From NCBI GenBank assembly GCA_008632985.1, contig QPGO01000105.1, forward strand, positions 1 through 64,000: a DNA stretch of 64,000 nucleotides. The letters run 5' to 3'. The translations under genes and the position numbers were made by a program. Shown here piece by piece: positions 1-61,564 of the stretch; the stretch's first letter is position 1; each line of letters begins with the position of its first letter. Origin of the DNA: Psammoneis japonica (lineage: Eukaryota). The notes under the pieces were generated by a model. That model had not been told where the DNA came from and did not search any database. It saw nothing but the letters and a program-made list of their open reading frames with translations.

Positions 1-510
1 CATTTTGAAAGATTGTTCCCACTGCTTCCCAAAAAACAGGGTTTGGGTCAATTTCTGTTGGTGCAAAGAAACTCACATGGAAAATTCAGGCAGAATGTCT
101 TGTTTGTCATGCTTTTCCTGTGCTTTGCACAAAACAGGCCACAACCTCAAGGAGTCAATTTCAGTCACAATGGCTGGCACTTTGTGTGCTTGCTTTTTGA
201 TGACAAACATGACAATGTCCACAATTTGGCAAAATTCCGTCATCAGAAAAAGTTTGCTGTGGTCAGACCAGAGTGAAGTGCCAATCAAATTTCTTAAAAT
301 GGAGTTTTGAAGTGTTGATGCATGGAATCACGTCACTTGTGCAAAAGTCGTTGTCATGCAAAGCACCAATGGTTTCAGGGGAAAGCAATTCCTGGAGGTT
401 CAGCGGAGCCAAGAAAAGAATGACAAAACAAGCATGAGAAAAAGTTGGCCCAAACCCTGATTTTTGTGATTTTTTCTGTGCAAAAATTGCATTGATTTTT
501 GTGCTGCCAG

Positions 511-751
511 CGCACATGGCTTGTTGGACCAAGGGCACAAGGCTCAGTCAGCCAGGTGTGGCAACTGACCTCCCTGGTCTTTTTGCCAAACTGCCCTGAG
601 GTCTGTTCTTTTGCCCTGTGGTTTGACATGATTTTTGTGCCAGTGCACCTGGCTTGTTGGACCAAGGGCACAAGGCTCAGTCTGCCAGGTGTGGCAATTG
701 ACCTCCCTCTGGTCTTTTTGCCAAACTGCCCTGAGGTCTGTTCCTTTGCCC
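511..751 (+). repeat. Two-copy direct repeat, period about 134 bp
   Basis: ggcttgttggaccaagggcacaaggctcagtc...ggtctttttgccaaactgccctgaggtctgttc occurs at about 518 and 651. Confidence 0.85.
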
Positions 752-3300
752 CATCCATGATCATCATGTGGGTGTGCTGTCCTGTGCAAAGAGCAGCAAC
801 AATGCTTGGACATCCCAAAACCTGTGCACAAATCACCTTGTCTAAACTTGGTGGAAGAAATGGGCATCATCAGAGACATCTCCTTTGCAGTGTGCCTGTG
901 TTGCAGCTGACAATTGTCAGAGTGACAGATTGCAGTCTTCACCAGCTGCCAGCCACAGGCAGTTCTGCACAAACTGTGCAGGAAATGCACCAGGGTTTGT
1001 TGAGAATTTGATGATGACATGATTCCATTTTGACAGCTGCAAGCAGCAGGAACAAACATGATTTTCCAGCACAAATGTGACAGTGACACCACAGACGGAG
1101 TCATTGTCAACACACCAATCACTGCATCATTTTGGGGTTTTGATCACAGGAATTCCTTGTGGTGTCCTTGAGTCCAGTGTGTGCCTTGGATGAGGACAGA
1201 CATCTGCAAGAAATTTACTTGCGAACAATGTGCTAAAGAGAAACCCAGATTTTGGGACACAGCTGGCTGGGCACAAAGTCATTTGGCACTGAATTTTCTT
1301 TGACAAGAGGAAAGACAAGGAAACAACATGAGGAAAAATCAGTTGGTGGCCCAGCATGTGGTTGCAACCATCATGATCCTTTCATCCAGCTGTTGATTTG
1401 TCCACAGCCTGTGGCTGCTAAAACACCTCTTTTTTTGCACTGCACTCAATGGGTGAGGCACAGACACCATTGGGGGGCACTTTCTCAAGGACAAAAACAT
1501 GTGCTTCCATGGACACAAGTGCGCTGTCTGCTCCAAGCAAGTGCGCAAAAGCTCAAGGTGGTGTGGCAAATCTGGCGCACATTGTGCAACAAAAGAAAAG
1601 AGGAAGCCTCTTTGTTTCCTTCATTCTTCAACAAGTCAATGAGGGGGAAATCAAGATGGAGCATGAGCAGAGTTTTGGGTCATTGGGAGCTCCTCTTGCA
1701 TCAGCCCCAGATTTCCTCAGATGAAAGGAAAATTTCCTGCACTTCTTTGGTGCCAGATTTGACCAATGCAGTCCTTTCATCTTGCAGCCAACATTGTGTC
1801 TTTTCATCTCTGTTGGTTGGCAAGTCCAGATGAGTGCAACCACTGCAGTGCTTCAAGTGGCCCACACCACAAAAAGTTTGGCTTTTTGTTGCTGAGATGC
1901 CCCCTTTCCTTTTGCAACCCTTTTTTCACCATGCAGAGCTGGCAAAAATGCCTTTTGACTGCAGTGGCACAGCTGCATGATCTGGCCAATGCCCAGTGCC
2001 AACATCATGAGAGAGGACGAGGCCAGCCAGCCCCCCCCCCCCCACTGCGCACCTGCTGACGGGCTGTGCCCTGCAGCTGGTCTTGCCAGCACAGCACTGC
2101 AGACAAACTCATTTCCTTGGACACACACCACAGAGAAATGCACTCTTGATTGCTTGTCTCTTGTGTTGCAGGTGGATCCTTTCCTTTTGCAGTCATTTTT
2201 TCACCAAGAGCTGGCTGCTGTGCTGCCAAGAAGCCTTGCTGTGCTGCTGCTGCTCACAGCAGGCACAGTGTGGCACAGAACCTGACACCTGATTCTGAAA
2301 GTCAGCCTTCAATCTGTCAAGTGCAAACTTAAATTGAAGTGCACAAGCTGTGAGAGCCAAGAGCCTGAGTCTTGCAGCAAGCCATGCCAAGGGGCCTTTG
2401 TGGTGGTGTGTCTGCCCCACTTGCTTGGGTTTTCTCCTGTCTCTCTTTTCACTTGCACACTTTCCAAAGAGAAGCAGCACAGCAAACAACCAAGCACCCA
2501 ATGCATTGAAGTCAATGTGGGTGCATTCATCAAGCGCAGCCATCTTTTCTGCTGTTGGCATGAAGATGTGGCTCTTGCTCTTCCTGTGCGAACTCTCCTT
2601 TGATGTGCTCATTCATTGCAAGCTCCCATGCAGCATGTGTCGGTGATTCCTCCTGAGTCAATGAAGAGAGTGAGGGTCGTCTGCTGGCAGCTAGAGCCAG
2701 TCTCTCCAGCTAGAGCCAGAGCAGAGAGACAGAGCAGGAACAACAGAGAGGACAGAGGAAGCATCATGCTCCATCCGTCGTTGGCGACTGTGTTCCAACC
2801 CTGCGACGGTTCTCGCACTCTTTTGCGTGCGGGCTTCATGGCGCCCAAAATGTGGTGCGCACCACACTTGCTCCAACACGAGCCGCCGCGTGCAGACATG
2901 ACAAGCGTGTTGTTGCTGTCATTTCTTTTGTGTTGCATCAGAGCTCCAACGCGACGCAACAATGCCACAGCTTCCCTCTCCGCAGCTGTCGATTGGCAAA
3001 GGCAAGACTTGATTCAACAGTCACTTGAGATGTCAGTTCTCTTGTGCTTGCACTTTTGTTTCGGCTTTGTTGTCAGCGTGCTGCAGCAGACACGCTGTCA
3101 AATCAAAATGACTGCGTCTCCTGCCGAATCCACTCCATTCAGGGATCTGTTTTCTTTTCTTAGAATTCAAAGCTTCGGAGCTTTTAACTCTCTTTTCAGA
3201 GCTCGGGGTTGAGACAGTCGATGATCTTGAGTTTTTGGAAGAGAAATGTTTCGAGCATCGCCCATCAATTTCTCCGGTTTCCGTGTAAAAGCTCCTTCTC

Positions 3301-5112
3301 GTGATTGACTTTATTCAAAACGGTGGGTCGATTGACGGATTTAGCTGCTTTCAGGATCTGGTCAAGTCTGTCAAGGCTGCAAAAGCAACATCGGCCCATG
3401 CATCGAAGGACAAGAACGGTGAATCGACAAAGGAGCTTGACCCTTTCGTCACCCCAAACGTTGGAGGACACAAGTTTGCCACGTCGCGCAAGACGCTTTC
3501 AAGCGCGTCTGGATCGTTTCTGGAGAATCTAGTTTCTGGACGGCACCACAATCCTGCTCGTCAAGACAAGGACGGCTCCCATTTCATTGATCGTGATGGT
3601 GCGCACTTTCAACACGTCCTCAACTTTCTCCGCGTCGGAACTGCAGTGACTCTTCCAGAAGGAGCCACGGCCCGAGAGGCTCTTGCCATGGAAGCTGATT
3701 TCTGCGGTCTTCACGAGCTTTTGCAAGCAGTCACCTTCCCCATGATTGAAATGGACGATCACCTTGACGAGGAGACTGTCAAAATTCGCAAGGATGAGGA
3801 CGCACTTCGTGGGGCTTTTGCGGATGGATCAGCTGCCAGTTTTGATCTCTACAGGGGTCTCATTCCTCCACTTTGTCCAGATGATCCTCCATCGCAGCCG
3901 TTGCATCACCGACCTGAAAGCCATTCGAGTGAAAATCATCATTTGCTCATGAACAACTTGCGCAACGACGAAGCAACGAGCAATGCACCAGTTGCGGTTG
4001 GAGCCCTTAGCGAGTTTGAAACCAATTTCAACCGCAAGCATCCAAATGTGCTCCACAGGCTGTCGGACGTCCTTCGTGAGGAGCCTGTCGTGATTGCTGG
4101 TGGAGCGGTGCTTCGTTGTCTCACCTCCAGTGCTGGAAGTCGCACGGCTCAATGGCGGGGCAAGAAAAGTGACATTGATGTGTTCCTGCACTGCAGCAAC
4201 GTGGAAGAGGCCAATCGAATTGCTCGACATGTCTGGAATGCATTGGCAGTGGACGACGAAATGTGGGTGATTGTGCGAGGTCGGGGAGTCATCACCATCC
4301 ATGACTGGGTGGATGCCAAGAAAACGCAGATCCTTCAAATCGTTCTTCGGTTGCATCAGTCTCCCGCCAAGATCCTTCTGGGTTTCGATTGCGACTGTTG
4401 CTGCTGCCCACATGACGGTGCATCCGCATGGGTGACCCCAAGGTGGCTCCATGCTGTGCAACACGGTGTCAACATCTTAAACCCACTCCACATGTGGCCA
4501 AACAAACCATCTCATGAACTTCACTTGGCAAAGTGCGCTCATCGTGGTTTCACTGTTGCTGTTCCAGGACTGGATCAGATGCGCATCGACTGCGACCGAA
4601 TCCGCCGCATGGATCTTTGTGATCTCAGGGGCATGGCCAGGCTGTTGAAAGTGTTGTTTGCAATCGAGCTCACGTGCAATCGTTCATCCGATGACATTCG
4701 TGACATTGACTTTCTAAAAGATGACCAAGACAGTTGTGCGGAGATTACGGAGCTTGTGATCCATGGGAGAACAGGAGTTTGCGAAGAAGGATTTGACAAT
4801 GTTGCAGTGATTGTCCCTTCTGATCACAACTTTGGAGGTGACAACATGCCTCCTTCCCCTGAAATGTGGTGTGATGGCCACGATGAGTTCCCGTGTGCTC
4901 AGTTTTGCCGTGACAAAGTCTGGGAAGAAATTGAAAACAACCAAAACCCTCCCAACGGGGTGCCAGGTCGTCTCTCGGACTCATGGAACCTCGAGAAGAA
5001 GTCTGGTGAGCATTTGAATGCCACCTTGGAGAATTTCGACCTGGTCAATTTGTGCCACATGCACGCGCACAAGACTCATGTGCAAAGGAACTTTGTGGGA
5101 AGGGGTGGTTGA
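3301..5112 (+). pseudogene. KCTD-type BTB/POZ domain fused to a Pol-beta-like nucleotidyltransferase domain; open frame but hypermutated
   Basis: BTB motifs NVGG-F-TSR-TL, FIDRDG-HF-HVLNFLR and EADFCGL. NTase-like IAGGAVL...SDIDVFL, QIVLRL...ILLGFD-DCC and SHELHLAKCAHRGF. Only one Tyr in 603 aa; positions normally Tyr read His or Cys. Confidence 0.75.
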
Positions 5113-5570
5113 CATCATCGAGGTCCAGAGCCTTGCATCTCCAACAAATTGCATTCCTCGATGCTGCAGTCTCAAAGTTGAAAGACATGATGTGCATGGC
5201 AGTGCCGTTGTTTTTTTCAATGCCTTGCTTTTTTTCCCTTGCTTCTCCTTGCAGTTTGTGAATGGTCGATGTGTCGGCCGTCGACTGCTTGCTGATTGGG
5301 CGCCACTTTGACTGGTGGATGTGCACTGTGTGGGGCATTTAGTTTGTGAAGTGGCACCGACATGTGGGATTGCTGAGTCTTCGCTGGGCTGTGCAGGCTT
5401 CACCACGCGCCAAATTTGTTCAAGTTGAAAGCAATGGTTTGCTCCAGTGTTTGAACAATGTTGCCATCCTCCTCATTGTCGACATTGCGGGCCAGACTTG
5501 CTTGTTCTTGCAGTTGCAAATCACAAGTGGCAGCTTGCACCGTGTGCGCTCCTTCACCAACGGTGCTGTT

Positions 5571-5690
5571 GCAGTGTTCGATGCAATTCCGCAACCATCC
5601 CTTGTCGAATGGATTTCGATGTTGACCGGCTTCATTCTGCAGATGCTTGCACCGTGCCAAATTCAAATGCTCATTCATGGCCAATGAGGC
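5571..5690 (-). pseudogene. Decayed fragment of a DHHC palmitoyltransferase C-terminus (TTxE/PaCCT region)
   Basis: AMNEHLNLARCKHLQNEAGQHRNPFDKGWLRNC matches the ZDHHC pattern TTNE..N..RY.YL....Y.NPFD.G...N once C/H are read as Y. Confidence 0.6.
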
Positions 5691-5859
5691 GACAGTCAAA
5701 GGTCTTTGTTGAATGATGCTTGGCCAGGAAGATGACTTTTGAAGCCACCTGTCGTGTGTGTCATCCAACCTTTCTAGTCTGGGCTTGGTGACATCTGATT
5801 GTCAGTGGGTCTGCCAATGTTTTCCAGATGGTGCTGCTCCTGTGCAGAGCTCATCAACA

Positions 5860-6177
5860 CCAGCATTGGTGTGCATGAAAACAGCATCATGCAGGAACAA
5901 AGTGGATGCTGCACCTTGTTTGGCCCTGGAAACAACCTTTCAGATGAGGAAATGAAACAAAAAGTCTGCAAGTGAAGGAGGAGCCATTGCAGTCATTGCC
6001 ATTTTTGGCAGCAAATGTCCAGCATTGGTGTGCATGAAAACAGCATCATGCAGGAACAAAGTGGATGCTGCACCTTGTTTGGCCCTGGAAACAACCTTTC
6101 AGATGAGGAAATGAAACAAAAAGTCTGCAAGTGAAGGAGGAGCCATTGCAGTCATTGCCATTTTTGGCAGCAAATGT
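5860..6177 (+). repeat. Exact 159-bp tandem duplication
   Basis: 5860-6018 is repeated at 6019-6177 (ccagcattggtgtgcatg...ggcagcaaatgt). Confidence 0.92.
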
Positions 6178-7963
6178 GAACAATGACAGCAGTGTGTTCT
6201 TTGTGATCTGCTGGCCCCTGCAAGGCAAAGGAAATGACACATGGGCAATGAGCACATTTGCCATTTTCTCTCCCAGCAGTGTGCTGCATCTGCTGCCTGT
6301 GAATTGGGCCAAGGGCTCCACAGCTTTCTGCTTGCAATCACTTCTGCCAGGTTGCTTGTGTCCCCAGCTTCCAAGTGCAGCCACTTTGCATGTCCCAAGA
6401 AGGCACAAACCTCAAGCATTTTGAGCACAATTTGCCTGGATTGCTTGTCCACCTTTGTGGTGGCAGAGCAGCTGCCTCCATGTGCCAGATGTCAGCCAGC
6501 ATTAAAAGTCACTTCTGCCAAATTGTTTGTGTCCCCACCAGCATTTGAGCATGGCACTTCTTTTCATGCCCCAAGGCACAAAACCAAAGCAGCATTTGGC
6601 ACAGCTTGTGCAGGTTGCTTGGCCACCTTTGTGGTGGTGGCAATGCAGCCTCTGACAACAAAGCAGCAACATTGACAGCAACAAGCAAAGAAAGCATTTT
6701 TCATTTGTTTTTGCTCACTTTGTTGCAACCCTCCTTGGCTGTTGTTGGGTGTCAGAAATCATGCCCTGTGCTCACTCACAACAAAACAACCACCACAAAC
6801 ACACTTCCTGTTTACAACATTTGCATGAGCAAGAATTGTGTGCTGGAGGGTGTTTGGAAAAGTGCCCTTGCCAATTTCCAAAACAAGGTGCCCACATTCC
6901 TTCAAACAAATCCAGTCACTTGGCACATTTTGTTGCAAGTTGTTGTTGCTGAAAACACTCAAAGTGTGCTCCTTGATCATGGTGCTGCTGCTGTCAGCTT
7001 TTGACAAGCACCGCTCCGAAGTTAATTGGCTTGCAAGCGTCACATCAAAAAATGTCAACACCTGAAGCCGAGCAACTTCTGAGTGTTGATGGACAGGAGC
7101 ACTGCTGCAAAGAAACAAAATGACAAAGATGCAGCTCTTGCTGGGGCAAAGAAGCTGCACAAGCTTTGGATGTGCTCATGTGATGCAAAAGCACACTCCA
7201 CCCCTGTGGAAATGTGTCAAATTCAAACCAAGTTTGGGCAGTGTGTTGTTCAAGATGATGACTGCTTTGGAGTCAATGGGAGGCACTCATCTTTGCACTT
7301 GGCAGTCCACCCCAGAACATTCATGTGGTTGACACTGTGACAGCCATTGTCCTTTCAGAACCACACCCCAAACAATGAGCCTCAGCAGAGTTCAAAATTT
7401 CTTCACTGATGCTGCTGTTTAAAACAACGCATCTTGATCCCCCTTCAGTTCCCACTGCTGTGTCCAAATGACTTCAAATGTGCAAAAGAAGAAAAGCTGC
7501 TCTGCCTGAGTTTGAAGAAGGAAAACATTTGCTTTTTGAGAAGAAGCTGCCGCGAGCATCCCATCTCGTGAAATTGTCATGCATGGTCCAGCAGCAATGA
7601 ACCGCTATGACATGCCTTCACTCGCGCTCACTTTGATGTTGCGTGCGGGACGCGTGCGGGACGCGTGCGGCAGTCGAAACAAACAACCAGAGAGCCCACA
7701 ACATTGCACATTGAAACCGATGTGAGTTCATCAATCAAGAGTGAGCATCTTTTCTGGGATTGGCACGACGATGATGTGATTGTGTTCATAAAACGCTTTC
7801 ACACAGCATGTGCCTGTTATTACTCCCAAGACAATAAACGAGAAGTTCCGCGATTGATCCTTGACGCGTATGAATTTTGACACTCTGCCACAAAGAAATC
7901 AACAGTAACAGCACATGGCATACGTATCTCCAAAGGTTATCTCTAGGTGCTATACATTTATGC

Positions 7964-8837
7964 TTATGCTGACTTTTGCATGACTTGCGCTCCCTTGAGG
8001 CCAGATTCTTCAATAGTTTGATCCAGATTTGTAATTGGCTTCGGTGGGAATCCCGACACAAGTCGAAAAGGTTGGGTCGAACCCAAATGTGCAGCCAATT
8101 GCAATACGGTGGCAGAAGTATTGATTCGTACAACACGACGCTGCCCATCTATCAAGCGAACCTGAATAGATGTGGTGGGACTCGACTCGTCCAACGCCGG
8201 AGCTTCCGGTAGAGTGGATGGATCAACCACACCATCCGCTGATGCAGAGGGAGCCCCTCCACCCAAAGAATTACCAGCACCCGAGAAACTGGTGAACTGT
8301 TCCACATACTCCTCAGACCTCTTGTCAATCAATCCCACAGTAACATCACCCTCCTCCAGTAATTCTCGAGGAGTCCTACCGGCTGCAAGACTTTGCAAAA
8401 ACTCCGCATTCGCTGGATCATTCAATCGGCGGTAGGGACCGTCATCGACTTGAAAGCCGCTGCGATACATGGTAATGGTGCGACGAGGAGGCCCGTCATC
8501 GCTTCCTCCTTGCTCTGCTAAGTCAAAGACTGAGTCACGAGGAGCGCCACCGCCTTCATTAGTATTGGGTTCGACAGCTAAGCCGCTGTGTTAATGCAAC
8601 GAAAAAGTAATGAGGAAATTTTGTGAGCGTGTGAACAGTTATCAATATCTACGACGCTGAATATCTATAAACTGTACAGTAGCAGGATCCAAGAGAGGGC
8701 GCAACAAAAAGAGACGCTCACCTGCCGCCGCCCCGAGAATCGACACCACCAACGTAACGATTGTTGCTTTCGTTCTCATCGTCGTCGTCTTTCTTGTCGT
8801 TGTCGCGCAAGCTATGGAGACCGTGGACGTTGCTCAT
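7964..8837 (-). CDS. p47/Shp1-like SEP+UBX domain Cdc48/p97 cofactor; two exons, intron 8586-8721
   Basis: Exon 1 MSNVHGL...YVGGVDSRGGG splices by GT-AG to SGLAVEPN. SEP domain (ITMYRSGFQVDDGPYR...FLQSL..GRTPREL), SHP box FSGAGNSLG, UBX domain (TTSIQVRLIDG...SGFPPK...GLKGA). Confidence 0.9.
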
Positions 8838-15749: not shown

Positions 15750-17114
15750 TTAATTATCATTGTTCCCCTCAAAATTGAAGGAAAGAGTTGGAGCTGGCTC
15801 AACCCCATTCCCAACTACTTGCCAACCAGTTTTTCGGGGAAAACTAGAAACAGCTTCATTGACGAATGGAGAAGCTCGGTAGAAGTCCTCTTCATCATGT
15901 TGAACTTCAGATGCGACAATCGTAATATACCAGGTAGAATATCCGTCATACCCCACACACCGGACAATTGCAAATTGTGATGGACAATGATTCCATTCGC
16001 CGTGCATACAGTATTCAGGACCAGTCGTAGAGAGGATATCATTACGTGTATAAACACCATTGACAGAAGAAATTCCAGCTCCTGTAACGGTGATGCTGGT
16101 CGGCAGAGGCGACTTCAAGACGTCAATCTCTTCTCGGGCCTCTTGGAGTGACGCTAAGCGGACTTCTGAGAGGAGAAGTGGGCTCAGATTTTCGAGAGAT
16201 TCGTTTGCGGCTGCTGAATCATTCAATCGACTCCATTCCAGAGCCAAGGACTTGACGCAGCATTCGTGCAGTCTGGTTGATGGCGCTGTCCCATCACTCA
16301 CCGCCGGCAGGACGGCTTTTTCGACCTCGAGTAACTTCAGGGAAGCATCAAAGTGCAGCCGTAAGCAACTGCCGACGGATTCAACTAGTTTTGAGAAAGT
16401 TTCAACATCCAGTTGATTCTTGTGTCGCATGCAGAACTCGGCAATCAGCCTGAAATAGCGTGCAGGAACCCTGGAACTGCTCTCCATCATATGGGATTGA
16501 ACGTCGACCCAGAATTGGACGCCCGAACCTTCCATCAAAGGAGAGTCTATGGCAATGTCGCCACAGCACTTCTTCACAACCATTTCTCGCAGTTCCTTGA
16601 TGTGAAAGGTTGCTGCGTGCTCGAAGCATGTCATGAACTCCGCATCGTTTAAGTGGATCCGCTCCCAGAACTCGAGCACTTTCGAGCGGAGACTGTCAAC
16701 TTGAAGATAGTCTGCCAGATGAAAGAGTGTAGCGGAGTTCTCGGGCGTCAACTCAGGTTCATCTAAATCGTAGATATAATCCAAGAGCTGAGGAAAGGCC
16801 TTGGCTGCCAGAGGATGAAATTGAATCGTAGACTTGTTGCTTAGCGCTTCCGCTGTGGCGCTCGCAAACAGAGCTTCAAAATATCCGCTGCTCTTCTCTC
16901 CAAACCCCAAAATGTTCTTATGCACGTGGTACGTGTCACTGGTTTCTTCTCCTTTCGCGTTCTCGTAAACAACCTCGATGGAGAAATCGCTGTAGCTCTC
17001 CTCCGGATCAAGTCGCCAGTTCAGCACACGCCACACGCGTTTGTTGGTCTTGTTGTTGTTGTTGCCAACGGCCTCATCATCACCGCCATTCATCTTGTTA
17101 CTTTCTCCTCTCAT
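15750..17114 (-). CDS. BTB/POZ domain protein
   Basis: LNWRLDPEESYSDFSIEV...YHVHKNILGFG...SGYFEALF...AFPQLLDYIY...LADYL; start could be 17114 or 17093. Confidence 0.85.
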   Translation of the reverse strand: MRGESNKMNGGDDEAVGNNNNKTNKRVWRVLNWRLDPEESYSDFSIEVVYENAKGEETSDTYHVHKNILGFGEKSSGYFEALFASATAEALSNKSTIQFHPLAAKAFPQLLDYIYDLDEPELTPENSATLFHLADYLQVDSLRSKVLEFWERIHLNDAEFMTCFEHAATFHIKELREMVVKKCCGDIAIDSPLMEGSGVQFWVDVQSHMMESSSRVPARYFRLIAEFCMRHKNQLDVETFSKLVESVGSCLRLHFDASLKLLEVEKAVLPAVSDGTAPSTRLHECCVKSLALEWSRLNDSAAANESLENLSPLLLSEVRLASLQEAREEIDVLKSPLPTSITVTGAGISSVNGVYTRNDILSTTGPEYCMHGEWNHCPSQFAIVRCVGYDGYSTWYITIVASEVQHDEEDFYRASPFVNEAVSSFPRKTGWQVVGNGVEPAPTLSFNFEGNNDN

Positions 17115-17514
17115 TGACGGTACACTATGCACCGCACCCTTATAGATCGTCGGCTGGACTACTCTCTTTACAATAAGCCTTGTTGGCTTGTTGGTTGTCT
17201 TTTGTTTGTTCACGCAACACAAATCACAACAGCACGCATCCAACATCATCCAACGACTATTTTTCTATTATATACGTTCATGAGTGTTTTTAAATCTACG
17301 TGCAGTTTTGAATATAACCGTGCAGTTCTTTCGATTTCGTACCCTTTTTTGACTTTTTACTTGTTCATGGATGTTTGAAGAATCTACGTGTAGTTTTTTC
17401 GATTTCTTCCAGTTTTTCGATATTTTTTATTTCTTCAAGTTTTTTCGATTATTCTCCACGCACGCACCACACGCCACACTCGCACGGTGGATCAATAGTC
17501 TACATGGCGCTGCC

Positions 17515-18642: not shown

Positions 18643-19494
18643 TATCATGCTTGGAAGGAATGTCCATCAGGTATTACTACAAGATTAGCGCTACACAGAA
18701 CGACAAGTGATTGATTCACGGTAACTACACTTCCTACTACGAGGCAAAGAGTTTACCAGCAAGATTGGTGTTATTCATACCGTGGCAGTGTCGTTCTATA
18801 GTGACCTTGACCTGCGATGCGCTTGTCGAGGCATTCAAAGCTGTACTCTAACAAAGCTCTGGTGAGCTTTGGTGTAACCAGCACAATTGAATGATCAATC
18901 ACTATCTAGTTGTTTTCTACATCCTTCCGAGTTACGAATCGCGATAGTAAATGCCTCTCTGAATCGCTCTTGCGTTGTTACATTGCTATAAACACTCCTG
19001 TTCGAGTGTGAGCTACAATACTGCTACATTGCTCGCTGGAGTTTTGCATGTCAGCCGGCCAAAAGACACCGTAAGGGGCACTCTTGACTCTAGTGAGTAG
19101 ATTGATCGAATGAAGACTATGGATCGACTCATGCTTTCGATTTCAATTCGACTTATGGTATCATAGCCCTCTAGAGGGCTACTGCTTGAGAAAAGGAATC
19201 GAACAATGTGCTGCCTTGCGCAATCAAATTGTGGCGAGCTCGGAGCTCTCATTTAATGAATATTCATGCTCATAAATATTTTAATATTATTATGACCCCT
19301 AAATGTCTCGCAGTCATCCTTTCATCGCGTCAATCAACGGCAAAAACAGCCCAAAAGAAAACGTTCAACGGCAACGCATCATACCGAACATACCGTTTGC
19401 CTTTTTGTAGAACCTTGTCATTCATCTTACATCCACCGTACAGTACTGCTTGCTCTGCTATCGACAGTCACTTCTTCTCATAAGAACATCCATC

Positions 19495-20415
19495 ATGTCA
19501 TCATCACGAGGAGGTGGTGGCGGCGACGCTGGCAGTACAGCCGCATCATCCATGGACTCGGTTCATGTGCGAAATCGCAAAATTGATTCACTGCGTACCC
19601 AAGTCGAGAGCAAGCTGTACAAACTAGTCGAGGGGAAGGGACAAGAATTTGATTTACTACGAAAACAAGTGGAAGAATTGCGACAACATCCTTCCTCTGA
19701 AGATGTGCTGTCGTCTAGTGCGAGTAGTCATGTCGTTGATGTCCATAAGACTTCCACAAGCAGAAGGCAATCGATCGGCAACAGCACCACCACGAGTACT
19801 ACAAGTTCTAGCACAACCACAGGCGTGACGGATTTGATCATTATGGATCCATATGGAGACGAAGGCACGTATAGCGGTTCGGTAAACAAGAAGAAGGTAC
19901 CACATGGCGTTGGAACCATGCAATACAGGGATGGCCGCTTGTACGAGGGAGAGTGGAAACACGGACATTGGCATGGCAGAGCGATTGCTAAATTTAACAA
20001 CGGGGATGTTTACGAAGGAAATTATAAAAAGGATCAACGACAAGGACACGGGTTGTACAAGTGGCGTGACGGACGAACCTATCAGGGAGAGTTTGAAGCG
20101 GATGAACGACATGGTGTCGGCGTGTATTGTTGGAGTGATGGAGCGTGCTATAAAGGAGAGTTTGCTCACGGCAAACGACAAGGTCAGGGAAGCTATACCT
20201 TTGCCGATGGATCGCATTACAAGGGAGAATGGGTCCAGGGGCGTTTTCATGGAGTTGGGCATGTCCAGTGGGCAGATGGACGCTCCTACAAGGGAGAATG
20301 GCAAGAAGGAAAGGCGCATGGGCGAGGTGTGGAAACATTAAAAGACCAGACCATTAGGCATGATGGAGAGTGGATTGAGAATGAGCCAGTTTTAGATAAC
20401 GACGACGAAGCGTGA
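19495..20415 (+). CDS. MORN-repeat protein
   Basis: About 7-8 consecutive YEGEW/YQGEF...HGxG repeats. Confidence 0.9.
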   Translation: MSSSRGGGGGDAGSTAASSMDSVHVRNRKIDSLRTQVESKLYKLVEGKGQEFDLLRKQVEELRQHPSSEDVLSSSASSHVVDVHKTSTSRRQSIGNSTTTSTTSSSTTTGVTDLIIMDPYGDEGTYSGSVNKKKVPHGVGTMQYRDGRLYEGEWKHGHWHGRAIAKFNNGDVYEGNYKKDQRQGHGLYKWRDGRTYQGEFEADERHGVGVYCWSDGACYKGEFAHGKRQGQGSYTFADGSHYKGEWVQGRFHGVGHVQWADGRSYKGEWQEGKAHGRGVETLKDQTIRHDGEWIENEPVLDNDDEA

Positions 20416-20769
20416 GGGGTGCTTTGTAATGTGACTTGTAGTTCTTTGTTAGCATTTATGACGTTGGAAATTGAGCTTTAAAAACCCTCAGAGCTTCAAC
20501 GGATGTAGCGCTGTATTATAGGAAGGAAACTAGTTCCACCAGAACCAATTTGGGCTTTGCGACAGTCTATGATGACACAGCACATTATGAATCATCTCCT
20601 TGAAATGGGCAAGCAGTGGAGACCGATGCTATATAAGGCCTGACATGCGTTGCGTCCGACGGTGCGTACCGATAGATTATGTTGTGTTGCGATGCGGCAA
20701 ACGGCAAATGCAATTGAAACACGAGCTCAAATTTAATGTTTATATAGCGCCCCGCATGGATGTTGTTGC

Positions 20770-27839: not shown

Positions 27840-29230
27840 TCCGCACAGCGTGGAGGGCATTGTGATTACAGTGTGACATGAGGCAGAAGTGCTGCTCAAC
27901 CCTGCACTGAGCCATCAAGAGAGCTCCACGCCAGCAGATGCCCCAATCGCAGTGTCAGGAGAGGACGATGTGTCGCAAAGGCTGGTGAGTGCATCTGTGT
28001 TGAGATCGCAAAGGCCAAGCACGTGAGCCACAAAATAAAAAGTTGCTGAGGTGTGGCGTCAAAAAAAGCAGCTTCATCATGAGGGCAGATCATGTGCCTG
28101 TGCACCTGCTTTTTAGAGACGCAAAGCAGCCAGCTTGTCACCCACACTCTCAAGTCTTCTGTTTTCTTTTGTGCAGGCCTGTGTGCACTCGTTCTCAACT
28201 TTTCTTTTTCTCCAGATGACAAACACCCCCCAAGCCCACCCACACGCGACAAATGCTGGGGCAAGAGCTCACACCACAAATGCGCTGGTGCTCAGATCAT
28301 CCCACCCTGAAGTCTGCCCTTTCTGCCATGCTCTTTTGCCAATGACCAAGACTCTTGCTCCTTGCAGAGCGCTTGTTTTGAAGCCCCAAACAATCTTTTG
28401 ACCATGTTCAAGAACCTGGTGCAGCCGCGGCTGACCAGACCAGCACACTGTTTGCAACTTGTGCTTGCACCATCAAAACCAACAATTTCAAGCATTCTGA
28501 GCAAGGCTGACAACAAGAGCAGCTGTGCTGGTGGCAGTCACACAACGCTGCACAACAGCTCGCAGATTTCCAGAGAGAGCCAGCTCCAAGCAAAGAACAC
28601 CCTGGGCAGTCTGACGAGCACAAGGAGTTTGTTGACAGATGGGTGAAAGAGGGGCACACCAGCACTGGCTTTTAGAGAGTCTCAAATTCTGGTTGCTTGA
28701 TCAGCCAGCTCCACCCACGGTGTGTTTGCAGGATCAAAAGCAACCAAAATGACCCAATCCAAACAAGTTGATGGCACTGTCACAAGCTCCCAGGGTGCCT
28801 GCAATGTGGGAACTGGCATTTTGAAATGAGAATGCTGGAAGAAACTTGAGCTTCAATGAGCTAAAAAAAACACATTTGCGTTGCAGGGGAGAATGGGTCC
28901 AAGGCCATCTTCGTGCTGTTGGGCACGTCCAGTGGGCGCAGATTGATGCTCTTGCATGGGAGAATGGCAAGAGGGAAATGCACATGGGCAAGGTGTGGAA
29001 ACATCAAAGGATCAGACCGCAAAGCATGATGGGGTGTGGATTGAGAATGAACCACTTTTGGACAATGATGGTGAAGCGCGCGAGGGGCACTTTGCAACAT
29101 GAAGTGTGGTGGTTTCATGCATCAAAGCATTGGTGACAATGGAAATTGAGATTTAACAACTTTCAGAGCTGTCACAGGAAGGAAACTATTTCCACCAGAA
29201 TCAATTTGTGCCTTGCGACAATCTGTGCCA
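27840..29230. other. TpA-depleted hypermutated block
   Basis: Same dinucleotide signature as the other blocks. Confidence 0.8.
28870..29230 (+). pseudogene. Decayed duplicate of the 3' end and downstream flank of the MORN gene at about 20205-20570
   Basis: ggagaatgggtcca...ggagaatggcaaga...ggtgtggaaaca...tggattgagaatga...ggaaggaaacta.ttccaccagaa is collinear with 20224-20545; frameshifted. Confidence 0.85.
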
Positions 29231-35689: not shown

Positions 35690-37030
35690 GCAGAAGATCT
35701 GCAAAGATGTGTGCAAGCATTTGCTCTTTTTGTTTTGCGTGCGCTGCATGCTTTTCTTTTTGAGTCCATTTGCCCTTCTTGAGTTGATGCCCATTTCTTG
35801 CACAAACATTTGTGTTTCCTTTTCTGCACCATGTGCATTTCTTTTTTAATCTGTTTGCCCTTCTTGCTTGGTGTGCCCATTTCTTGCACAAACATTCTCA
35901 TTTCCTTTTCTTGTCATTGAAGCTGCTGCCATGATGTTCTGGAGAGCAATTGCACATCTTGCACTTGCTCCCTCAGCAACATGGCAATGTGCACACACTT
36001 TTGCTGCTGGCAGCAAACAAGATGCTGCAACAAAACCATTGTGAAGGCACCCATTGGTTGTCATGTGCTGAAGCTGGTTTTGCTTTTGTGATGACCATGG
36101 AAAAGCTCCCTGCACCACAAAGACCATTTGCAACCACATGTCACCCAGCTTAGAAAAAAGGGTGAGAGCATGGCTGTTCTCTTGAGACAGCAGGCTTCTC
36201 AAGTTCTCTCACTCTTCCAGGAAGTGTGCACAGTTTCCTCCTCCACTGGCACCTTGGTCATCACCACAGTCATGTTGAGCCACCTTGCTGCTTTTGATTT
36301 GCTCCTCAAGCCAGCCGTGCTCTGCAACAACTCTTTGGCAAGTCTCTCTGTGTGCAGCCATGTGCTGCTGAAGATTTGTGAAGGGAGCAAGGGCACAAAT
36401 TTCAACAACAAGCAGATTTGTTTCTTGTTGCACTGCAAGTCAGCTGCAAGTCCATGCCGCCACAGGTGTCTTTTGGGTGCCACAGTCATGTTGAGCTGCT
36501 GTGCTGCTGCACTCATTGTGTCTTTAAAAACAAACTCACAACATGTGCTGCACTGGAACAAGCCAGCTCTTTTGATCAATCAGCTTGGTGGCCCACATGT
36601 TGTGCATGTTGCTTTTTGTTGGGGAAAGCACACTCTTGATGTCAAAAATTGCATCACATTGGCATTTGTGCCAATGGCATTGACAACTGCCTGTGGCTGC
36701 AAAGTTGGTGCATCCCTGCTCTCAGCTTCATGATCAACACTCTCAGCCCCAGGCTCACAAAAACAATTTGGAGGCTCTTCTGTGCCCAGCTTGTCAAAAT
36801 CACTTTGTGCCCACATGCGCTGTCACTTTCATCAAGATTTTCTTCATTGTTGGAGTCTGGCTCAATTGTTGTTGGGTGACCAATCCCCAAGAAAGGCCAG
36901 GTGCCACAACCTGACTTTGGTCTCTGCTGGGGACAAAGAGAAAGAACCCAAGCAAGCCCACCTCCAACAAAATCTGCCACATCTGAGATGCTGACCTTGC
37001 AGCATTGTCAAGTGCCCCAGATGACTGCTG
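35690..37030 (+). repeat. Dispersed repeat R, copy 1 (other copies at about 40755-41990 and 45735-46995)
   Basis: Collinear sequence tgcccatttcttgcacaaacatt...gcagcattgtcaagtgccccagatgactg is present three times. Confidence 0.85.
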
Positions 37031-37188
37031 GAGACTGGAGCAAACATTCTTCGCCTTTGCAAAGCTGCACGTCAGGTGTCCCCACCACAGGAGCAGAGTG
37101 CGCGAGAAATGGTCATTGATGAGCACACTGATTGGAGATGAGATGCAAGAGTTTCAATGATGTGATCTGTTGATTGACTTGACCCACA

Positions 37189-37528
37189 AGCAGTGAGCAC
37201 CTCTGTTTTGTGGGAAAAAACCGTTTTAAACAATTGGGTGGATGGATGTGTTTCAATGGCCACATCTCTCCCTCAAACACTGTCATCCGAACAAACCCTC
37301 AGTGTCTCACCCCCTTTTCATGTGTGCGAGGAATTTGGTTCTGCTGCTCGTTTTCTCCTGTCACAAACAGCAGAACCAAATTCCTTGTGCCAGCACATGA
37401 AAAGGGGGGTGAGACACTGAGGGTTTGTTCGGATGACAGTGTTTGAGGGAGACACATGATCATTGAAACACATTCATCCACTGAATTGTTCAACGGTTTT
37501 TTCCCACAAAATTTGGGTGCTCACTGCT
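37189..37528. mobile_element. About 340-bp foldback/MITE-like inverted repeat
   Basis: Arms of about 155 bp: agcagtgagcacc...ggaatttggttctgctg pairs with cagcagaaccaaattcc...gggtgctcactgct around a short loop. Confidence 0.8.
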
Positions 37529-37960
37529 CATTTCCAAGAATTTGAAAAGAAAGTTGGGGACCCACCGTGTGGCTTGCAAATCAGCGCTTGATGTGGCTGA
37601 TGTCACGTGTGGTCAACCCCTGACTTTGTGCCATTGTTTCAGACCGAGCTGGCCACAAAACTTGGTTGGATAGAGTTGTTGTGTTCTGCTCGTAGAGGCT
37701 ACACCATTTCTACGTACGTAGAATTCCACTGCGGGAAACGATTTTTGAAAGTACGTACAAGTGCGTAACCCCATTTTTAGAGTCGAAAGCTTCCTGCCAA
37801 AACTCCAAAACTGTTACATGTTGTAGGAACAACTCAGCTTTCTGGTGTGTTTGCACATCGCCGACCGGATTGAGAGAAAGATGTTCATGCGCAAAGGCAA
37901 GGTTCTTGACACAACCGAGCCTTTAATGCGGCTCTACTCTTTTGCTAGACAGCACAAATT

Positions 37961-40068
37961 ATGATACAACGGGCGGTGCGTCTTGGTTTCCTCGCAGGCC
38001 TGGGCCATCGACGATTCCACCCGAACGTGAAATGTCTCTCATCGATGGTGTCGAGGCGTTCGTTGTCGCAACTGAGAATGGCAGAAATGGTGCCAACCTC
38101 TATTCCCTCCTTTGATGATGCGCCCAAGAGTGAGCGGTATCTTTTCGACTTCTTTAAAAAGTTTCTGCCTAAAGAAGACTTCACTGTGTGGTGGAATATT
38201 CGACTTGTTCCTTCGTCCCGACAAGTGGATTTCGTCGCACTGGCCCCAACAAAAGGGCTTTTGATTGTCGAAGCCAAAGGCTACCCACTTGACTGGATTG
38301 TCCAAGGTGATATGCAGCAGATCATTTTGAGAAGACCATTCGATCCTCTGTCTGAAGCTCGTGCTGAAAAGCACCCATTGTGGCAGGCCGAAGGATACAA
38401 GAACCACCTGCTAGACATGCTCAAGGCGGAGAAAATACTCTGTCATCCAAGTGGTTCTCGCCAGGGACAGCCATTGCTCCCAGTGGGACGTTGCGTTGCG
38501 ATGACAGCGGCCAAGCGTCAGAACCTAAAACGTGAAAATGCCCATGGTGTCTACGTGAATGATATTTTCGAAGACAACTCTATACTGTTTCGAGATGATA
38601 TTGAAGCTTGGAAAACGCTTCCCCCGGAGCAGCGGATAAAGCATTTCGAGTCTCTATTTGATTCTCGGGTCGAATGGCATCCAGAGTGCCCATTGACGAA
38701 CGATCAGATTCAGACGATTAGAGGCTTGCTGCACCCGACGACGCAAATTTCCCGAGTACCGGCACAGGCAGCAAGCTGGAATCTTGGTGGTCTTCGCCAC
38801 ATGCCGACTGATGCCACGGTGCTTAAGAGTTTAGATTTGAAGCAGGAACAAGTTGCCAAAGGAATTGGAACGGGGCATCGAATTCTTGCTGGGGTGGCAG
38901 GATCGGGGAAAACACAAGTTTTGCTATGTCGGGCCAAGATCTTATCGGAATGCAATCCCGACGCGCGTATTCTGGTCACCTGCTACAACAGGACCCTTGC
39001 AAGTTATCTGAGATCTCTTCTTTCTCCGTATTCAAACGTGGAGGTTTCGCACTTTCATGGATGGGCGGAGAAACGTGTGCTCTTGCCGCTGTACACTGGC
39101 AAAAGAGTAAAAGATGAGGAAACAGACGGTGTAATCGCAGAATCTCTTTATCTTCACTGTGAGACCGATCGACACGATCGATACGACGCTATACTGGTGG
39201 ATGAGGCGCACATGATGAGCGGGGCATGGCTCAAGAGTCTAGTCGGTTTCTTGAAAGACCCTGATGGTGGCGACCTGCTTATTGTTTGTGATCGATCGCA
39301 GATGCTGAAGCAGCGTTCTTCTTTCACGTGGTCTTCGGTAAATATCAAAGCACGAGGGCGCACAATGACGTTCTCTCACAATTATCGAAACACAAAGCAA
39401 ATTCTCAATATGGCTTGGGGACTAATGACATATCTGATTGGCAACAAAACAGATTCCGTGTCCAAAGATGAAGCCTTTCCTCTCGTCAAACCGTCAGCGG
39501 CGCGAAGGGATGGCCCAAAACCCACGCTCTTACCTACAAACAATTGGAAGAAGTCGCTGTTGGAATATCTTGGTTACTTGCTGGACAGCGGTGTCCCGTC
39601 GAACGACATTGCGATACTTTATCGATGGAATGTGCGAGGATTCGTTAAAAGACTCAAGGAGGACATTGAACGTCGTTTTGGAAGCGGTATTGTTTATTGG
39701 GTCAATCAGGACCAACAATCAAAAGACCGGTTCGGTTCGCAGAAAAAGGGCATAAGACTCATTACTCACCAATCGTCGCTTGGCTTAGAGTTCAAGCATG
39801 TGATTGTAATTCGACCGGAGCATTTTGAACGTGACCTGTTCTCCCGTCAAAATGCGATGACGTGGAAGGTGCTTGTAAGGAGATACACGTTGGATTAACT
39901 CGAGCTTGTGAAGAGCTAACTCTTATCGCTGAAAGTGTCAGCCAAATATCTGTTTTCTTTAAACAAAAGGCTTCCGAGCTGGATCTTGTCATAGCTGATC
40001 CTCATATGCTGGCTGACTTGCAGTACCCAACGGAAGAGAACGCGCCTGAACACCGCCACGACAACTGA
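37961..40068 (+). CDS. NERD nuclease + SF1 (UvrD-like) helicase, copy 1; 1-bp frameshift at about 39840
   Basis: NERD VDFV...GLLIVEAKGY...HPLWQAEGY; Walker A GVAGSGKT; Walker B ILVDEAH; NYRNT; GLEFKHV; HVGLTRA in the shifted frame 39862-40068. Intronless. Confidence 0.88.
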
Positions 40069-42151
40069 CTGTCGTGGCTCTAATGATAACCCCAACAAGT
40101 GGTGGTTTTCCTTTTCACCACTGCGGCCTGTGTGTATGAAAATTTAATGGTTGGCTTTGTAATACGTCGAGTCTAGCCAGAACTGCTCTTTATGTTACAC
40201 TGTTCGTCACACCGAAATGAAATAGCTAGCTACACCACCACGCCAAGTGAGGACTTCATCTGCGTACCCGCACAAAACTGTCCGTCGTACGCTGATTTCT
40301 TAAGCCTGACATCCACTTTCTTATTAGTCACCGTCAGGAACGATTTTGCATTGGGCTGAGCTGACGATGCCTTTTCTGACATCGTCATCGTCCTCCGCAA
40401 GATGGTTGGAATCGGTCAGTTCTTGGGCTCGAGACGATGACGTCACCACGTGCAAAAATCGCTGCCGCACCGACAATCATGAACCAATGAAAACAAACAA
40501 ACAAAACAATTGAAATCCAAAGTTTGTTTGCACTGGGCCCAAATCAAGAAGAAGCACTGTCACAAATGCTTTCTGTGTCAAAAATGTGGTGAAGGAATTG
40601 AAACTTTCAAAACTCTGAAACAATTTGTGAGAGAGACCAAAGTGACTTGCACACCCTTCAGCGCAAGAAATGCCACACCACCAAGCAGCAAGAAGGAAGA
40701 GCAGCCTGGCACTGAGCAGCGCCCTTGTGCCAAACAGACTTGGCAAGCTCCACTTTGAACTTGTGTGCAAGCATTTGCTCTTTTTGTCTCGCGCACCATG
40801 TGCTTTTCTTTTTGAGTCTGTTTGCCCTTCTTGCTTGGTGTGCCCATTTCTTGCACAAACATTTTGTTTCCTTTTCTCATTGTTGCAGCTGCTGCCATGC
40901 CATCCTGGAGAGCAATTGCACATCTTGCATTTGCTTCCTCAGCAACATGGCAATGTGCACACTGTTGCTGCTGGCAGCAAACAAGATGCTGCAACACGCA
41001 ATTGTGAAGGCACCCAGCGGTTGTCATGTGCTGAAGCTGGTTTTGCTTTTGTGATGACCATGGAAAAGCTCCCTGCACCACAAAGACCATTTGCAACCAC
41101 ATGTCACCCAGCTTAGAAAAAAGGGTGAGAGCATGGCTGTTCTCTTGAGACAGCAGGCTTCTCAAGTTCTCTCACTCTTCCAGGAAGTGTGCACAGTTTC
41201 CTCCTCCACTGGCACCTTGGTCATCACCACAGTCATGTTGAGCCACCTTGCTGCTTTTGATTTGCTCCTCAAGCCAGCCGTGCTCTGCAACAACTCTTTG
41301 GCAAGTCTCTCTGTGTGCAGCCATGTGCTGCTGAAGATTTGTGAAGGGAGCAAGGGCACAAATTTCAACAACAAGCAGATTTGTTTCTTGTTGCACTGCA
41401 AGTCAGCTGCAAGTCCATGCCGCCACAGGTGTCTTTTGGGTGCCACAGTCATGTTGAGCTGCTGTGCTGCTGCACTCATTGTGTCTTTAAAAACAAACTC
41501 ACAACATGTGCTGCACTGGAACAAGCCAGCTCTTTTGATCAATCAGCTTGGTGGCCCACATGTTGTGCATGTTGCTTTTTGTTGGGGAAAGCACACTCTT
41601 GATGTCAAAAATTGCATCACATTGGCATTTGTGCCAATGGCATTGACAACTGCCTGTGGCTGCAAAGTTGGTGCATCCCTGCTCTCAGCTTCATGATCAA
41701 CACTCTCAGCCCCAGGCTCACAAAAACAATTTGGAGGCTCTTCTGTGCCCAGCTTGTCAAAATCACTTTGTGCCCACATGCGCTGTCACTTTCATCAAGA
41801 TTTTCTTCATTGTTGGAGTCTGGCTCAATTGTTGTTGGGTGACCAATCCCCAAGAAAGGCCAGGTGCCACAACCTGACTTTGGTCTCTGCTGGGGACAAA
41901 GAGAAAGAACCCAAGCAAGCCCACCTCCAACAAAATCTGCCACATCTGAGATGCTGACCTTGCAGCATTGTCAAGTGCCCCAGATGACTGCTGGAGACTG
42001 GAGCAAACATTCTTCGCCTTTGCAAAGCTGCACGTCAGGTGTCCCCACCACAGGAGCAGAGTGCGCGAGAAATGGTCGTTGATGAGCACACTGATTGGAG
42101 ATGAGATGCAAGAGTTTCAATGATGTGATCTGTTGATTGACTTGACCCACA

Positions 42152-42491
42152 AGCAGTGAGCACCTCTGTTTTGTGGGAAAAAACCGTTTTAAACAATTGG
42201 GTGGATGGATGTGTTTCAATGGCCACATCTCTCCCTCAAACACTGTCATCCGAACAAACCCTCAGTGTCTCACCCCCTTTTCATGTGTGCGAGGAATTTG
42301 GTTCTGCTGCTCGTTTTCTCCTGTCACAAACAGCAGAACCAAATTCCTTGTGCCAGCACATGAAAAGGGGGGTGAGACACTGAGGGTTTGTTCGGATGAC
42401 AGTGTTTGAGGGAGACACATGATCATTGAAACACATTCATCCACTGAATTGTTCAACGGTTTTTTCCCACAAAATTTGGGTGCTCACTGCT
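42152..42491. mobile_element. Second copy of the foldback inverted repeat
   Basis: Same sequence as 37189-37528 at offset 4963. Confidence 0.8.
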
Positions 42492-61503: not shown

Positions 61504-61564
61504 NNNNNNNNNNNNNNNNNNNNNNNNNNNNNNNNNNNNNNNNNNNNNNNNNNNNNNNNNNNNN
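61504..61564. other. Assembly gap (N run) followed by poly-C
   Basis: Run of n characters. Confidence 0.99.

Follow-up and report, generated by a model that had tools for sequence, protein, structure and literature searches.

A tyrosine-stripped BTB and Gad2-like gene copy in a diatom, probably inactivated by hypermutation at TpA

Background

What process can take almost every tyrosine from a gene and leave its reading frame open, and is such a gene alive or dead? These questions are raised by a locus near the beginning of contig QPGO01000105.1 of Psammoneis japonica (assembly GCA_008632985.1), of which the first 64,000 nucleotides (hereafter the window) were analysed. On the forward strand, at positions 3163-5112, lies a copy of a gene whose family appears to join a KCTD-type BTB domain to a Gad2-like nucleotidyltransferase part. 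An original prediction, made from the sequence alone, had described it as a gene of 603 codons, stripped of tyrosine but still open. We conclude that this gene copy is most probably a young pseudogene, killed mainly by missense changes, in a region swept by A:T to G:C hypermutation directed at TpA dinucleotides, a judgement that applies to both parts of the reading jointly.

Results and discussion

The gene copy and its family

The full stretch homologous to the family (3163-5112, forward strand) was delimited by tblastn with seven homologues, each of which gave one alignment in frame +1 (E values of 1e-130 to 1e-169) ending at 5070-5085 and, for six of the seven, starting at 3163-3205, upstream of the open reading frame (ORF). 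The open frame itself, also on the forward strand, runs from 3289 to 5112 (607 codons plus the stop at 5110-5112) and starts directly after a TAA at 3286-3288. In keeping with the KCTD-type assignment of the original prediction, its translation, read from 3298, carries a BTB_2 domain of KCTD/T1 type (residues 54-141, positions 3457-3720, forward strand; Pfam PF02214, E = 8.7e-16; score 58.5 bits, cut-off 21.4). A family profile built from our alignment of 27 homologues (A1) matches the PDB chains of KCTD16, KCTD7, KCTD5, SHKBP1 and Kv T1; these BTB chains are its sole matches among solved structures, none being found for the C-terminal part.

About 35 proteins align with the same translation across 90-99% of its length (E values down to 1e-167, 37-47% identity), and they carry precomputed matches to PF02214 and PF26128; the only named one comes from the diatom Seminavis robusta. 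PF26128 is named 'Gad2' (Gabija anti-defence 2) in the ESM Atlas, where the structural neighbours of one homologue's C-terminal part are poly(A)-polymerase/CCA-transferase folds and the clusters around it come from diatoms, haptophytes, ascomycetes and giant viruses. The Pfam scan gave no PF26128 match in the gene copy, as it also failed to do in three homologues, and membership is taken here from the alignments covering 90-99% of the length together with four retained residues, G268, G269, D292 and D294. These residues, invariant in A1 with the window copy included, form the intact G-G ... D-x-D motif of the Gad2-like part (4099-4179, forward strand), and altogether 56 invariant columns of A1 are retained. 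No near-identical or unmutated paralogue was found in the protein collection, the best full-length match being 47% identical and the best short match 68% identical over 82 amino acids.

From these likenesses we read the gene copy as probably belonging to a cellular, diatom-type family with KCTD-type BTB and Gad2-like nucleotidyltransferase domains. What it shares with the KCTD/SHKBP1-type BTB and Gad2 families is the BTB_2 match, homology over the full length and the G-G ... D-x-D motif; unlike intact BTB and Gad2-like proteins, it lacks a start, contains an in-frame stop and has lost every conserved tyrosine. A recent giant-virus origin of the gene was considered and rejected, as the viral relatives found are only 26-35% identical.

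Loss of tyrosines and other missense changes

The 607 codons of the open frame encode a single tyrosine, 35 histidines and 20 cysteines, whereas the 27 homologues contain 13-28, 7-23 and 5-21 of these residues, respectively. We then considered the 289 columns of A1 that are filled by 15 or more homologues and in which no fewer than 60% of these share one residue. Thirteen of them have tyrosine as the consensus, and at these the gene copy has histidine ten times, cysteine three times and tyrosine never; each homologue, left out in turn and scored by the same criterion, retains 10-14 of 14 such columns. All 13 former tyrosine codons are CAY or TGY, a single TA to CA or TA to TG step away from TAY. 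The CAY codons begin at 3580, 3907, 4189, 4354, 4411, 4513, 4825, 5011, 5056 and 5068, and the three others, all TGC, at 3703, 4534 and 5053 (all on the forward strand). The same set of histidines and cysteines is carried by none of the 27 homologues.

The claim of the original prediction that the gene has been stripped of its tyrosines thus stands, and the loss is far greater than chance would give, although some of its details do not hold. Four of the five motifs it had listed as altered are right; in FQHVLNFLR, the fifth, the histidine is itself the family consensus (HFxHILNFLR). In EADFCGL (consensus EADYYGL) the cysteine fits a TA change and the phenylalanine does not come from this process. 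The one remaining tyrosine had been counted correctly, but its codon (TAC, 3850-3852, forward strand) aligns with a consensus histidine and is therefore not a retained family tyrosine.

Tyrosine is not the only residue affected. The gene copy agrees with the consensus at 211 of the 289 columns and departs from it at 78. We call a departure explained by a process if the consensus residue reappears once a single CA or TG overlapping the codon is turned back (into TA, for the TA process). Changes from TA to CA or TG account in this way for 20 of the 78 (13 tyrosines, two L>P, two V>A, two T>A and one I>V), and changes from CG to CA or TG for five (two E>K, two R>H and one R>Q); two control pseudo-processes account for four (AT to GT or AC) and three (GC to AC or GT). 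These counts bear out the proposal that protein conservation reveals the direction of mutation, from TAY to CAY or TGY. If these 25 changes of TA or CG type are left out of account, the gene copy matches the consensus at (211+25)/289 or 0.82 of the columns, a value that falls within the range of the homologues (0.72-0.92) and therefore indicates little other decay. Apart from TA- and CG-type damage, the gene copy would thus look like a normal member of its family.

A block without TA

The gene copy contains 10 TA dinucleotides against 116.6 expected, an observed/expected ratio (o/e) of 0.09, whereas seven ordinary genes of the window have ratios of 0.47-0.65. Its CG o/e is 0.83 against 0.85-1.05 in the same seven genes, and CA and TG are both raised to 1.4. 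The original prediction was therefore right that CpG is still common in the gene and, as a description, that the loss of TA runs ahead of the loss of CG.

This depletion extends well beyond the gene. Counted in bins of 250 nucleotides, TA occurs 0-3 times per bin throughout positions 1-7750 and then 14 times in 7751-8000, so that the edge of the block falls, at this resolution, between 7750 and 7751. Three parts can be told apart within it: a left flank at 1-2750, poor in both TA and CG (o/e 0.04 and 0.11) and holding no recognisable coding domain; an island at 2751-5750 that contains the gene copy and has kept CpG but not TA (CG o/e 0.79, TA o/e 0.07); and a right flank at 5751-7750, again poor in both (TA o/e 0.04, CG o/e 0.19). 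CA and TG ratios are 1.46-1.97 across the three. Both TA and CG ratios are thus near 0.04-0.19 in the flanks, and CG counts per 250 nucleotides are 6-20 in the island against 0-4 in most flank bins. Since the island has lost TA but kept CG, with an o/e of 0.83 in the gene, the two footprints are separate, and since it has lost TA as completely as the flanks have and yet kept its CpG, we think that the TA sweep was much faster than CpG decay. We read the loss of TA and the loss of CG as two processes with different rates and footprints, not as two stages of one.

About 200 nucleotides from the block edge lies the 3' end of the first gene beyond it, which is on the reverse strand (7967-8590), encodes SEP and UBX domains (Pfam E values of 1.5e-20 and 1.6e-9) and has an ordinary composition (TA o/e 0.56). 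Further TA-poor blocks occur in the window at about 21-24, 28-29, 34-37.5, 40-48, 56-58 and 62-64 kb. A second, unrelated BTB gene (PF00651 type; 15753-17264, reverse strand) has an ordinary composition with a TA o/e of 0.47, and BTB genes as such are therefore not the target. The right flank contains a perfect tandem pair of 159 nucleotides (5860-6177, 100% identical), which is either younger than the mutation sweep or an effect of assembly.

Direction and context in tandem copies

The direction of change can be read independently in a pair of tandem copies with a unit of about 4.97 kb, each holding ORFs with NERD and AAA_19/AAA_30 domains (37400-45613, forward strand). Copies A (37949-39895) and B (42888-45044) are 97% identical, and at 48 sites A has TA where B has CA or TG, with no site in the reverse direction. 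The differences between the two affect 92 positions, of which 48 are TA-type, nine CG-type, 22 other transitions and 13 transversions. At the 100 TA sites of copy A, taken over 37400-40650, copy B (42363-45613) has TG in 29 cases and CA in 19. These two outcomes are interleaved along copy B, and both DNA strands must therefore have been hit. A third case is provided by a MORN-repeat gene (19411-20412) and a TA-poor partial copy of it at 28001-29100, about 80% identical; compared over 20214-20422 of the gene region, the partial copy has CA or TG at five sites where the gene has TA, and the reverse is never seen.

The base that follows also matters. Counted by strand-site in the tandem pair, the A of TA had changed in 37 of 109 cases where a pyrimidine came next and in 11 of 91 where a purine did (Fisher's exact test, p = 4e-4), and TTAA was mutated at none of its eight sites. 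Across 43 TA-poor bins of 500 nucleotides, TTAA persists at 0.43 of its density in normal bins, CTAA/TTAG at 0.25 and CTAG at 0.23, whereas ATAT, GTAC and ATAG have disappeared; most of the TA that survive stand in YTAR contexts. Nine of the 10 TA left in the gene copy are likewise preceded by T or C. The target of the mutator appears to be T-A-pyrimidine.

The pair used here belongs to a longer array (35700-48000) of three copies of about 4.97 kb that each hold a NERD and AAA_19/AAA_30 helicase-like frame; the third copy is partial or diverged, and an ORF of the cpYpsA SLOG family follows (46987-48024). Elsewhere in the window, an open frame of 1263 codons with leucine-rich repeats (49212-53000) has a normal TA content and contains four tandem units of 549 nucleotides that are 69-82% identical, and a run of 61 N at 61504-61564 marks a scaffold gap.

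An open frame in a gene that is probably dead

The original prediction held the gene to be still open, from 3301 over 603 codons. That position lies within the real open frame but is merely a GTG, the frame running from 3289, and although the ORF is open, the stretch of homology crosses an in-frame TAA and has lost its start. The TAA (3286-3288, forward strand) lies in the conserved N-terminal region, where it aligns with the K/R of Q[RK]KLLLV in the four homologue alignments displayed, and the homology of six of the seven homologues reads through it. There is no in-frame ATG between this TAA and 3688; the ATG at 3688, the first in frame, lies inside the BTB domain, and an ATG at 3108 is in a different frame. 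No frameshift was seen by tblastn with the seven homologues over about 640 codons.

Openness of the frame is what the genetic code would lead one to expect. Changes from TA to CA or TG create no stop codon (TAA to TGA merely swaps one stop for another), and among CG changes CGA to TGA alone makes one; six CGA codons remain in the gene copy. Because the TA changes cannot create stops, the open frame carries little weight as an argument for function. The earlier proposal that a gene can be crippled by missense without new stops thus holds by the code, with the qualification that this copy does have one in-frame TAA and no start. Judged against the BTB and Gad2-like family, it is not an intact gene: it has an internal TAA, its first ATG is at 3688 and it keeps none of the 13 conserved tyrosines. 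With all 13 lost, the TAA at 3286 in frame and no usable ATG, we consider the copy dead, and presumably silent.

Two of the few TA remaining look newly made by C to T change at CpA, namely the TAC at 3850-3852, which replaces a consensus histidine (CAC), and the TAA at 3286-3288, which may come from CAA or AAA. They hint either that the sweep has ended here or that the contexts G-TA-A and C-TA-C are spared.

Related sequences in two public runs

Of the words sampled from 3101-5200, 73% occur in a public DNA run (X1), whose contigs are identical to the window over 4381-4746, 5158-5416 and 6783-7909. These contigs were built from exact 31-mers at a depth of about 27-35 (the longest record being 315 kb). 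Contig depth summed over related sequences, which is not a copy number, is 77-361 in the gene, 213-1186 in the left flank and 48 in the neighbouring gene, and many diverged contigs fall in the left flank (1-2750). Over 5158-5416 and 4085-4746, one X1 contig equals the window and another differs by about 9%, at depths of 27 and 33 and of 32 and 32, respectively; such pairs could be independently mutated haplotypes of the block, or paralogues.

Relatives of the gene copy at 85% identity or more are present in X1. At position 4369 the window has A (Lys, where the consensus is Glu), whereas six X1 contigs and one contig of a second run (X2) read G. A 688-nucleotide X2 contig aligns to 4285-4788 at 85% identity. 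The unaligned end of an X2 contig just past 5025, translated by hand, reads IDKLDLDNLY as in the family consensus, a TAC codon standing in place of the window's TGC. The G at 4369 and this tyrosine codon show that relatives in the same sample keep the ancestral state. X2 is flagged 'DNA?', but we infer from GT..AG-type joints in neighbouring genes (9466>9582 and 8585>8722) that it is derived from RNA; the SEP/UBX gene at 7967-8590 is covered by a spliced-looking X2 contig. If X2 is RNA-derived, the relative that it contains would be an expressed paralogue. Among the matches listed, there is no exact X2 piece over the gene copy, and no RNA run is listed for 3101-5200; missing cover of either kind is no evidence on expression.

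A probable sweep directed at TpA

Direction from TpA to TpG or CpA is observed both in the gene, where it accounts for 20 of the 78 departures including all 13 tyrosines, and between the tandem copies, where 48 changes stand against none. The changes are confined to discrete regions beside unaffected DNA, the block at 1-7750 being one and the further TA-poor blocks of the window the others. This signature, its direction and its limits, the preference for a 3' pyrimidine, the damage to the gene and the independence from CpG loss are all shown here. The process behind them may be pictured as follows. A domain of at least 7.7 kb around the gene copy would have been swept by TpA-directed A:T to G:C hypermutation, in which an A that follows T, preferably one standing before a pyrimidine, becomes G on either DNA strand; a hit on the plus strand would turn TA into TG and a hit on the minus strand TA into CA. 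The sweep would have replaced every conserved TAY codon by one for histidine (CAY) or cysteine (TGY) and would also account for the L>P, V>A, T>A and I>V substitutions, with the frame staying open as no stops were possible. The loss of CpG would be a separate, slower process, presumably deamination of 5-methylcytosine, that ran to completion in the repeat-like flanks and barely touched the gene island. The TA sweep would have been fast and recent by comparison, and would have extended to a low-copy gene that lay between stretches resembling repeats. The affected domain was presumably singled out because its chromatin was silenced or because it resembles paralogues. As for the chemistry, by analogy with what has been proposed for Bigelowiella natans it may be deamination of adenine to inosine in DNA, a suggestion to which we give an even chance.

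Several observations weigh against this reading. The closest protein in the databases shares only 47% identity, so that for the gene copy the direction of change rests on a protein consensus, and 53 of the 78 departures from that consensus fit neither the TA nor the CG process. Histidine replaced tyrosine ten times and cysteine three times (binomial p = 0.046), and overall 14 changes gave CA and six TG (p = 0.12). This excess clashes with the T-A-pyrimidine rule, because tyrosine codons are T-A-Y on the coding strand, which would favour cysteine; it suggests a bias towards the template strand at this locus, or chance. The repeat nature of the flanks is hinted at by summed X1 contig depth alone: none of the 17 stop-to-stop ORFs of at least 110 amino acids at 378-7175 (the gene excluded) matches a Pfam family, transposon domains included, and blastn gave no hit between the block and the other 56 kb of the window, other TA-poor blocks included. 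X1, finally, may be the assembly's own sample and its platform is unrecorded, which makes it weak as independent support.

The uncertain provenance of X1 touches on whether the signature could have arisen in sequencing or assembly, from modified bases (T in TpA, 5-methylcytosine in CpG) miscalled as CA or TG by a long-read base-caller. TA and CG are indeed both palindromic and both end as CA or TG, as a symmetric modification with strand-wise miscalls predicts, and neither the platform of the assembly nor that of X1, perhaps the same sample, is recorded. We nevertheless regard an artefact as very unlikely. The exact 31-mer contigs of X1 reproduce three stretches of the block with no differences, as noisy long reads would hardly do; the tandem pair is changed at 48 of 100 TA sites and with a preference for certain 3' neighbours; the gene island has lost TA and not CG, so that the two effects are separable; and the same signature arose de novo in B. 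natans lines sequenced by Illumina (bioRxiv 10.64898/2026.01.13.699255). A comparably small chance is given to the gene copy being a functional, fast-evolving member of its family, with histidines and cysteines that are adaptive or tolerated and a start in an upstream exon or at the ATG at 3688. Such a member would account for 607 open codons, the G-G ... D-x-D motif, the 56 invariant columns and the near-normal CpG, but openness is expected anyway of changes that make no stops, and no homologue loses more than four of 14 conserved tyrosines where this copy has lost 13 of 13. The homology moreover crosses the TAA in frame, a start at 3688 would remove most of the BTB domain, and the changes match exactly those in the flanking non-coding DNA. 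In a quick tree the copy also has a terminal branch of 1.16 against a median of 0.52, with a composition that departs from the alignment.

Two further explanations accept that the changes are real and place their origin elsewhere. One is that the region is old, neutrally decaying and possibly foreign DNA, such as a giant-virus insert, from which TA was removed by its own composition or by GC-biased gene conversion, without any targeted mutator. BTB or Gad2-like proteins do occur in giant-virus bins, and the B. natans case concerns integrated viruses (bioRxiv 10.64898/2026.01.13.699255). However, the five viral loci found to be related share only 26-35% identity with the copy, and that within the Gad2-like part, whereas diatom-type proteins reach 45-47% along their full length; nor is the copy old, since besides its TA- and CG-type changes it agrees with the consensus as homologues do and has no frameshift. 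Biased gene conversion is, to our knowledge, not dinucleotide-specific, and the 48:0 asymmetry between tandem copies that are 97% identical demands a recent, copy-specific process; we consider this explanation highly improbable, if slightly less so than an artefact. The other is that a double-stranded transcript was edited by an ADAR-like enzyme, which prefers U-A, and then reverse transcribed and inserted, and this we rate lowest of all. The coding stretch has no intron, and A to G change after a 5' T is the neighbour preference of ADAR (quoted in bioRxiv 10.64898/2026.01.13.699255). Editing of one strand would, however, give one kind of change, and both kinds are mixed within single copies (14 CA and six TG in the gene, 19 CA and 29 TG in copy B); the sweep spans 7.7 kb including non-genic flanks, and copy B sits in register within a tandem array, which is not a site of retro-insertion. 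ADAR proper is, as far as we know, restricted to animals. Hypermutation of the DNA itself at TpA thus remains our preferred reading.

Comparison with known systems

The closest published case is TpA hypermutation of integrated giant-virus and virophage DNA in the chlorarachniophyte Bigelowiella natans, described in a 2026 preprint (Mettrop et al., bioRxiv 10.64898/2026.01.13.699255). In mutation-accumulation lines of that species, two regions of integrated viral DNA gained 231 mutations, of which 230 were A>G/T>C changes, every one of these at TpA; the regional rate was about 6e-7 per site per generation, some 1000-fold above background, in some lines only, and the authors propose deamination of adenine in DNA by an ADAT2-like enzyme (bioRxiv 10.64898/2026.01.13.699255). 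The two cases share changes solely from TpA to TpG or CpA, confined to discrete regions beside normally mutating DNA, and a long-term footprint of TA depletion with a surplus of CA and TG; the low-TA coding sequences of B. natans also include many of likely host origin, along with transposon domains, in likeness to the present gene. They differ in several respects. The host here is a diatom-type stramenopile and not a chlorarachniophyte, and the victim appears to be a copy of a cellular-family gene between unannotatable repeat-like flanks rather than integrated viral DNA. TA is almost fully depleted (o/e 0.04-0.09, compared with a Rho of 0.45 in the B. natans virus region), and in the flanks its depletion is combined with loss of CpG. 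A preference for a 3' pyrimidine is seen here, whereas the main text of the preprint does not contain the words trinucleotide, flanking or context.

Among the matches listed, there is no published description of TA erasure in diatoms. One record retrieved as a possible source on TpA (PMC4504042) proved irrelevant, 'Tpa' there standing for 'Tpase'.

In Neurospora and other Pezizomycotina, repeat-induced point mutation (RIP) changes C to T at CpA, creating TpA and stop codons; it inactivates duplicated DNA and can leak into adjacent low-copy genes. The likeness to the present case lies in dense, dinucleotide-specific transitions in blocks that leave neighbouring genes untouched, and perhaps in leakage into a low-copy gene. 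Duplication may play a part here too: X1 contains related contigs that are at least 85% identical (six of them at position 4369), and one of the two tandem copies was hit, but no sequence elsewhere in the window resembles the block. The direction and the chemistry are the reverse of those in RIP: A to G change at TpA destroys TpA and makes no stops, and the signature of RIP, the creation of TpA, is not what is found, TA ratios being 0.04-0.09 with CA and TG raised.

CpG decay by 5-methylcytosine deamination, as in methylated transposons, resembles what is seen in the flanks, where CG ratios are 0.11-0.19 with a surplus of TG and CA. It leaves the loss of TA unexplained, and the island has lost TA without loss of CG. 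As roughly nine tenths of the TA has gone from the gene and hardly any of its CG, the erasure of TA is not a by-product of methylation decay.

Conclusion

The gene copy is an ordinary casualty of an unusual and barely described mutation process, whose direction can be read from protein conservation alone, with no need for a duplicate. Victims of this process set a trap for annotation, in that they keep long open frames and pass as genes with an odd composition (no tyrosine, an excess of histidine and cysteine). The preference for T-A-pyrimidine offers a direct handle for testing candidate deaminases. If the process is the same as in B. natans, it is found in two distant lineages of SAR (stramenopiles, alveolates and Rhizaria) and hits copies of cellular genes as well as viral DNA.

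More tentatively, and somewhat short of calling it probable, we suggest that diatoms possess a DNA mutator that turns the A of T-A-pyrimidine into G on both strands and across whole silenced chromatin domains, faster than and independently of CpG decay. It would act by domain and not by repetition, and low-copy cellular genes lying between repeats would be destroyed by missense alone, their frames remaining open. Were such a mutator real and shared with Bigelowiella, it would be an old genome-defence mechanism of the SAR lineage, opposite to the RIP of fungi, and would leave behind genes that are open but dead and that gene finders annotate as real.

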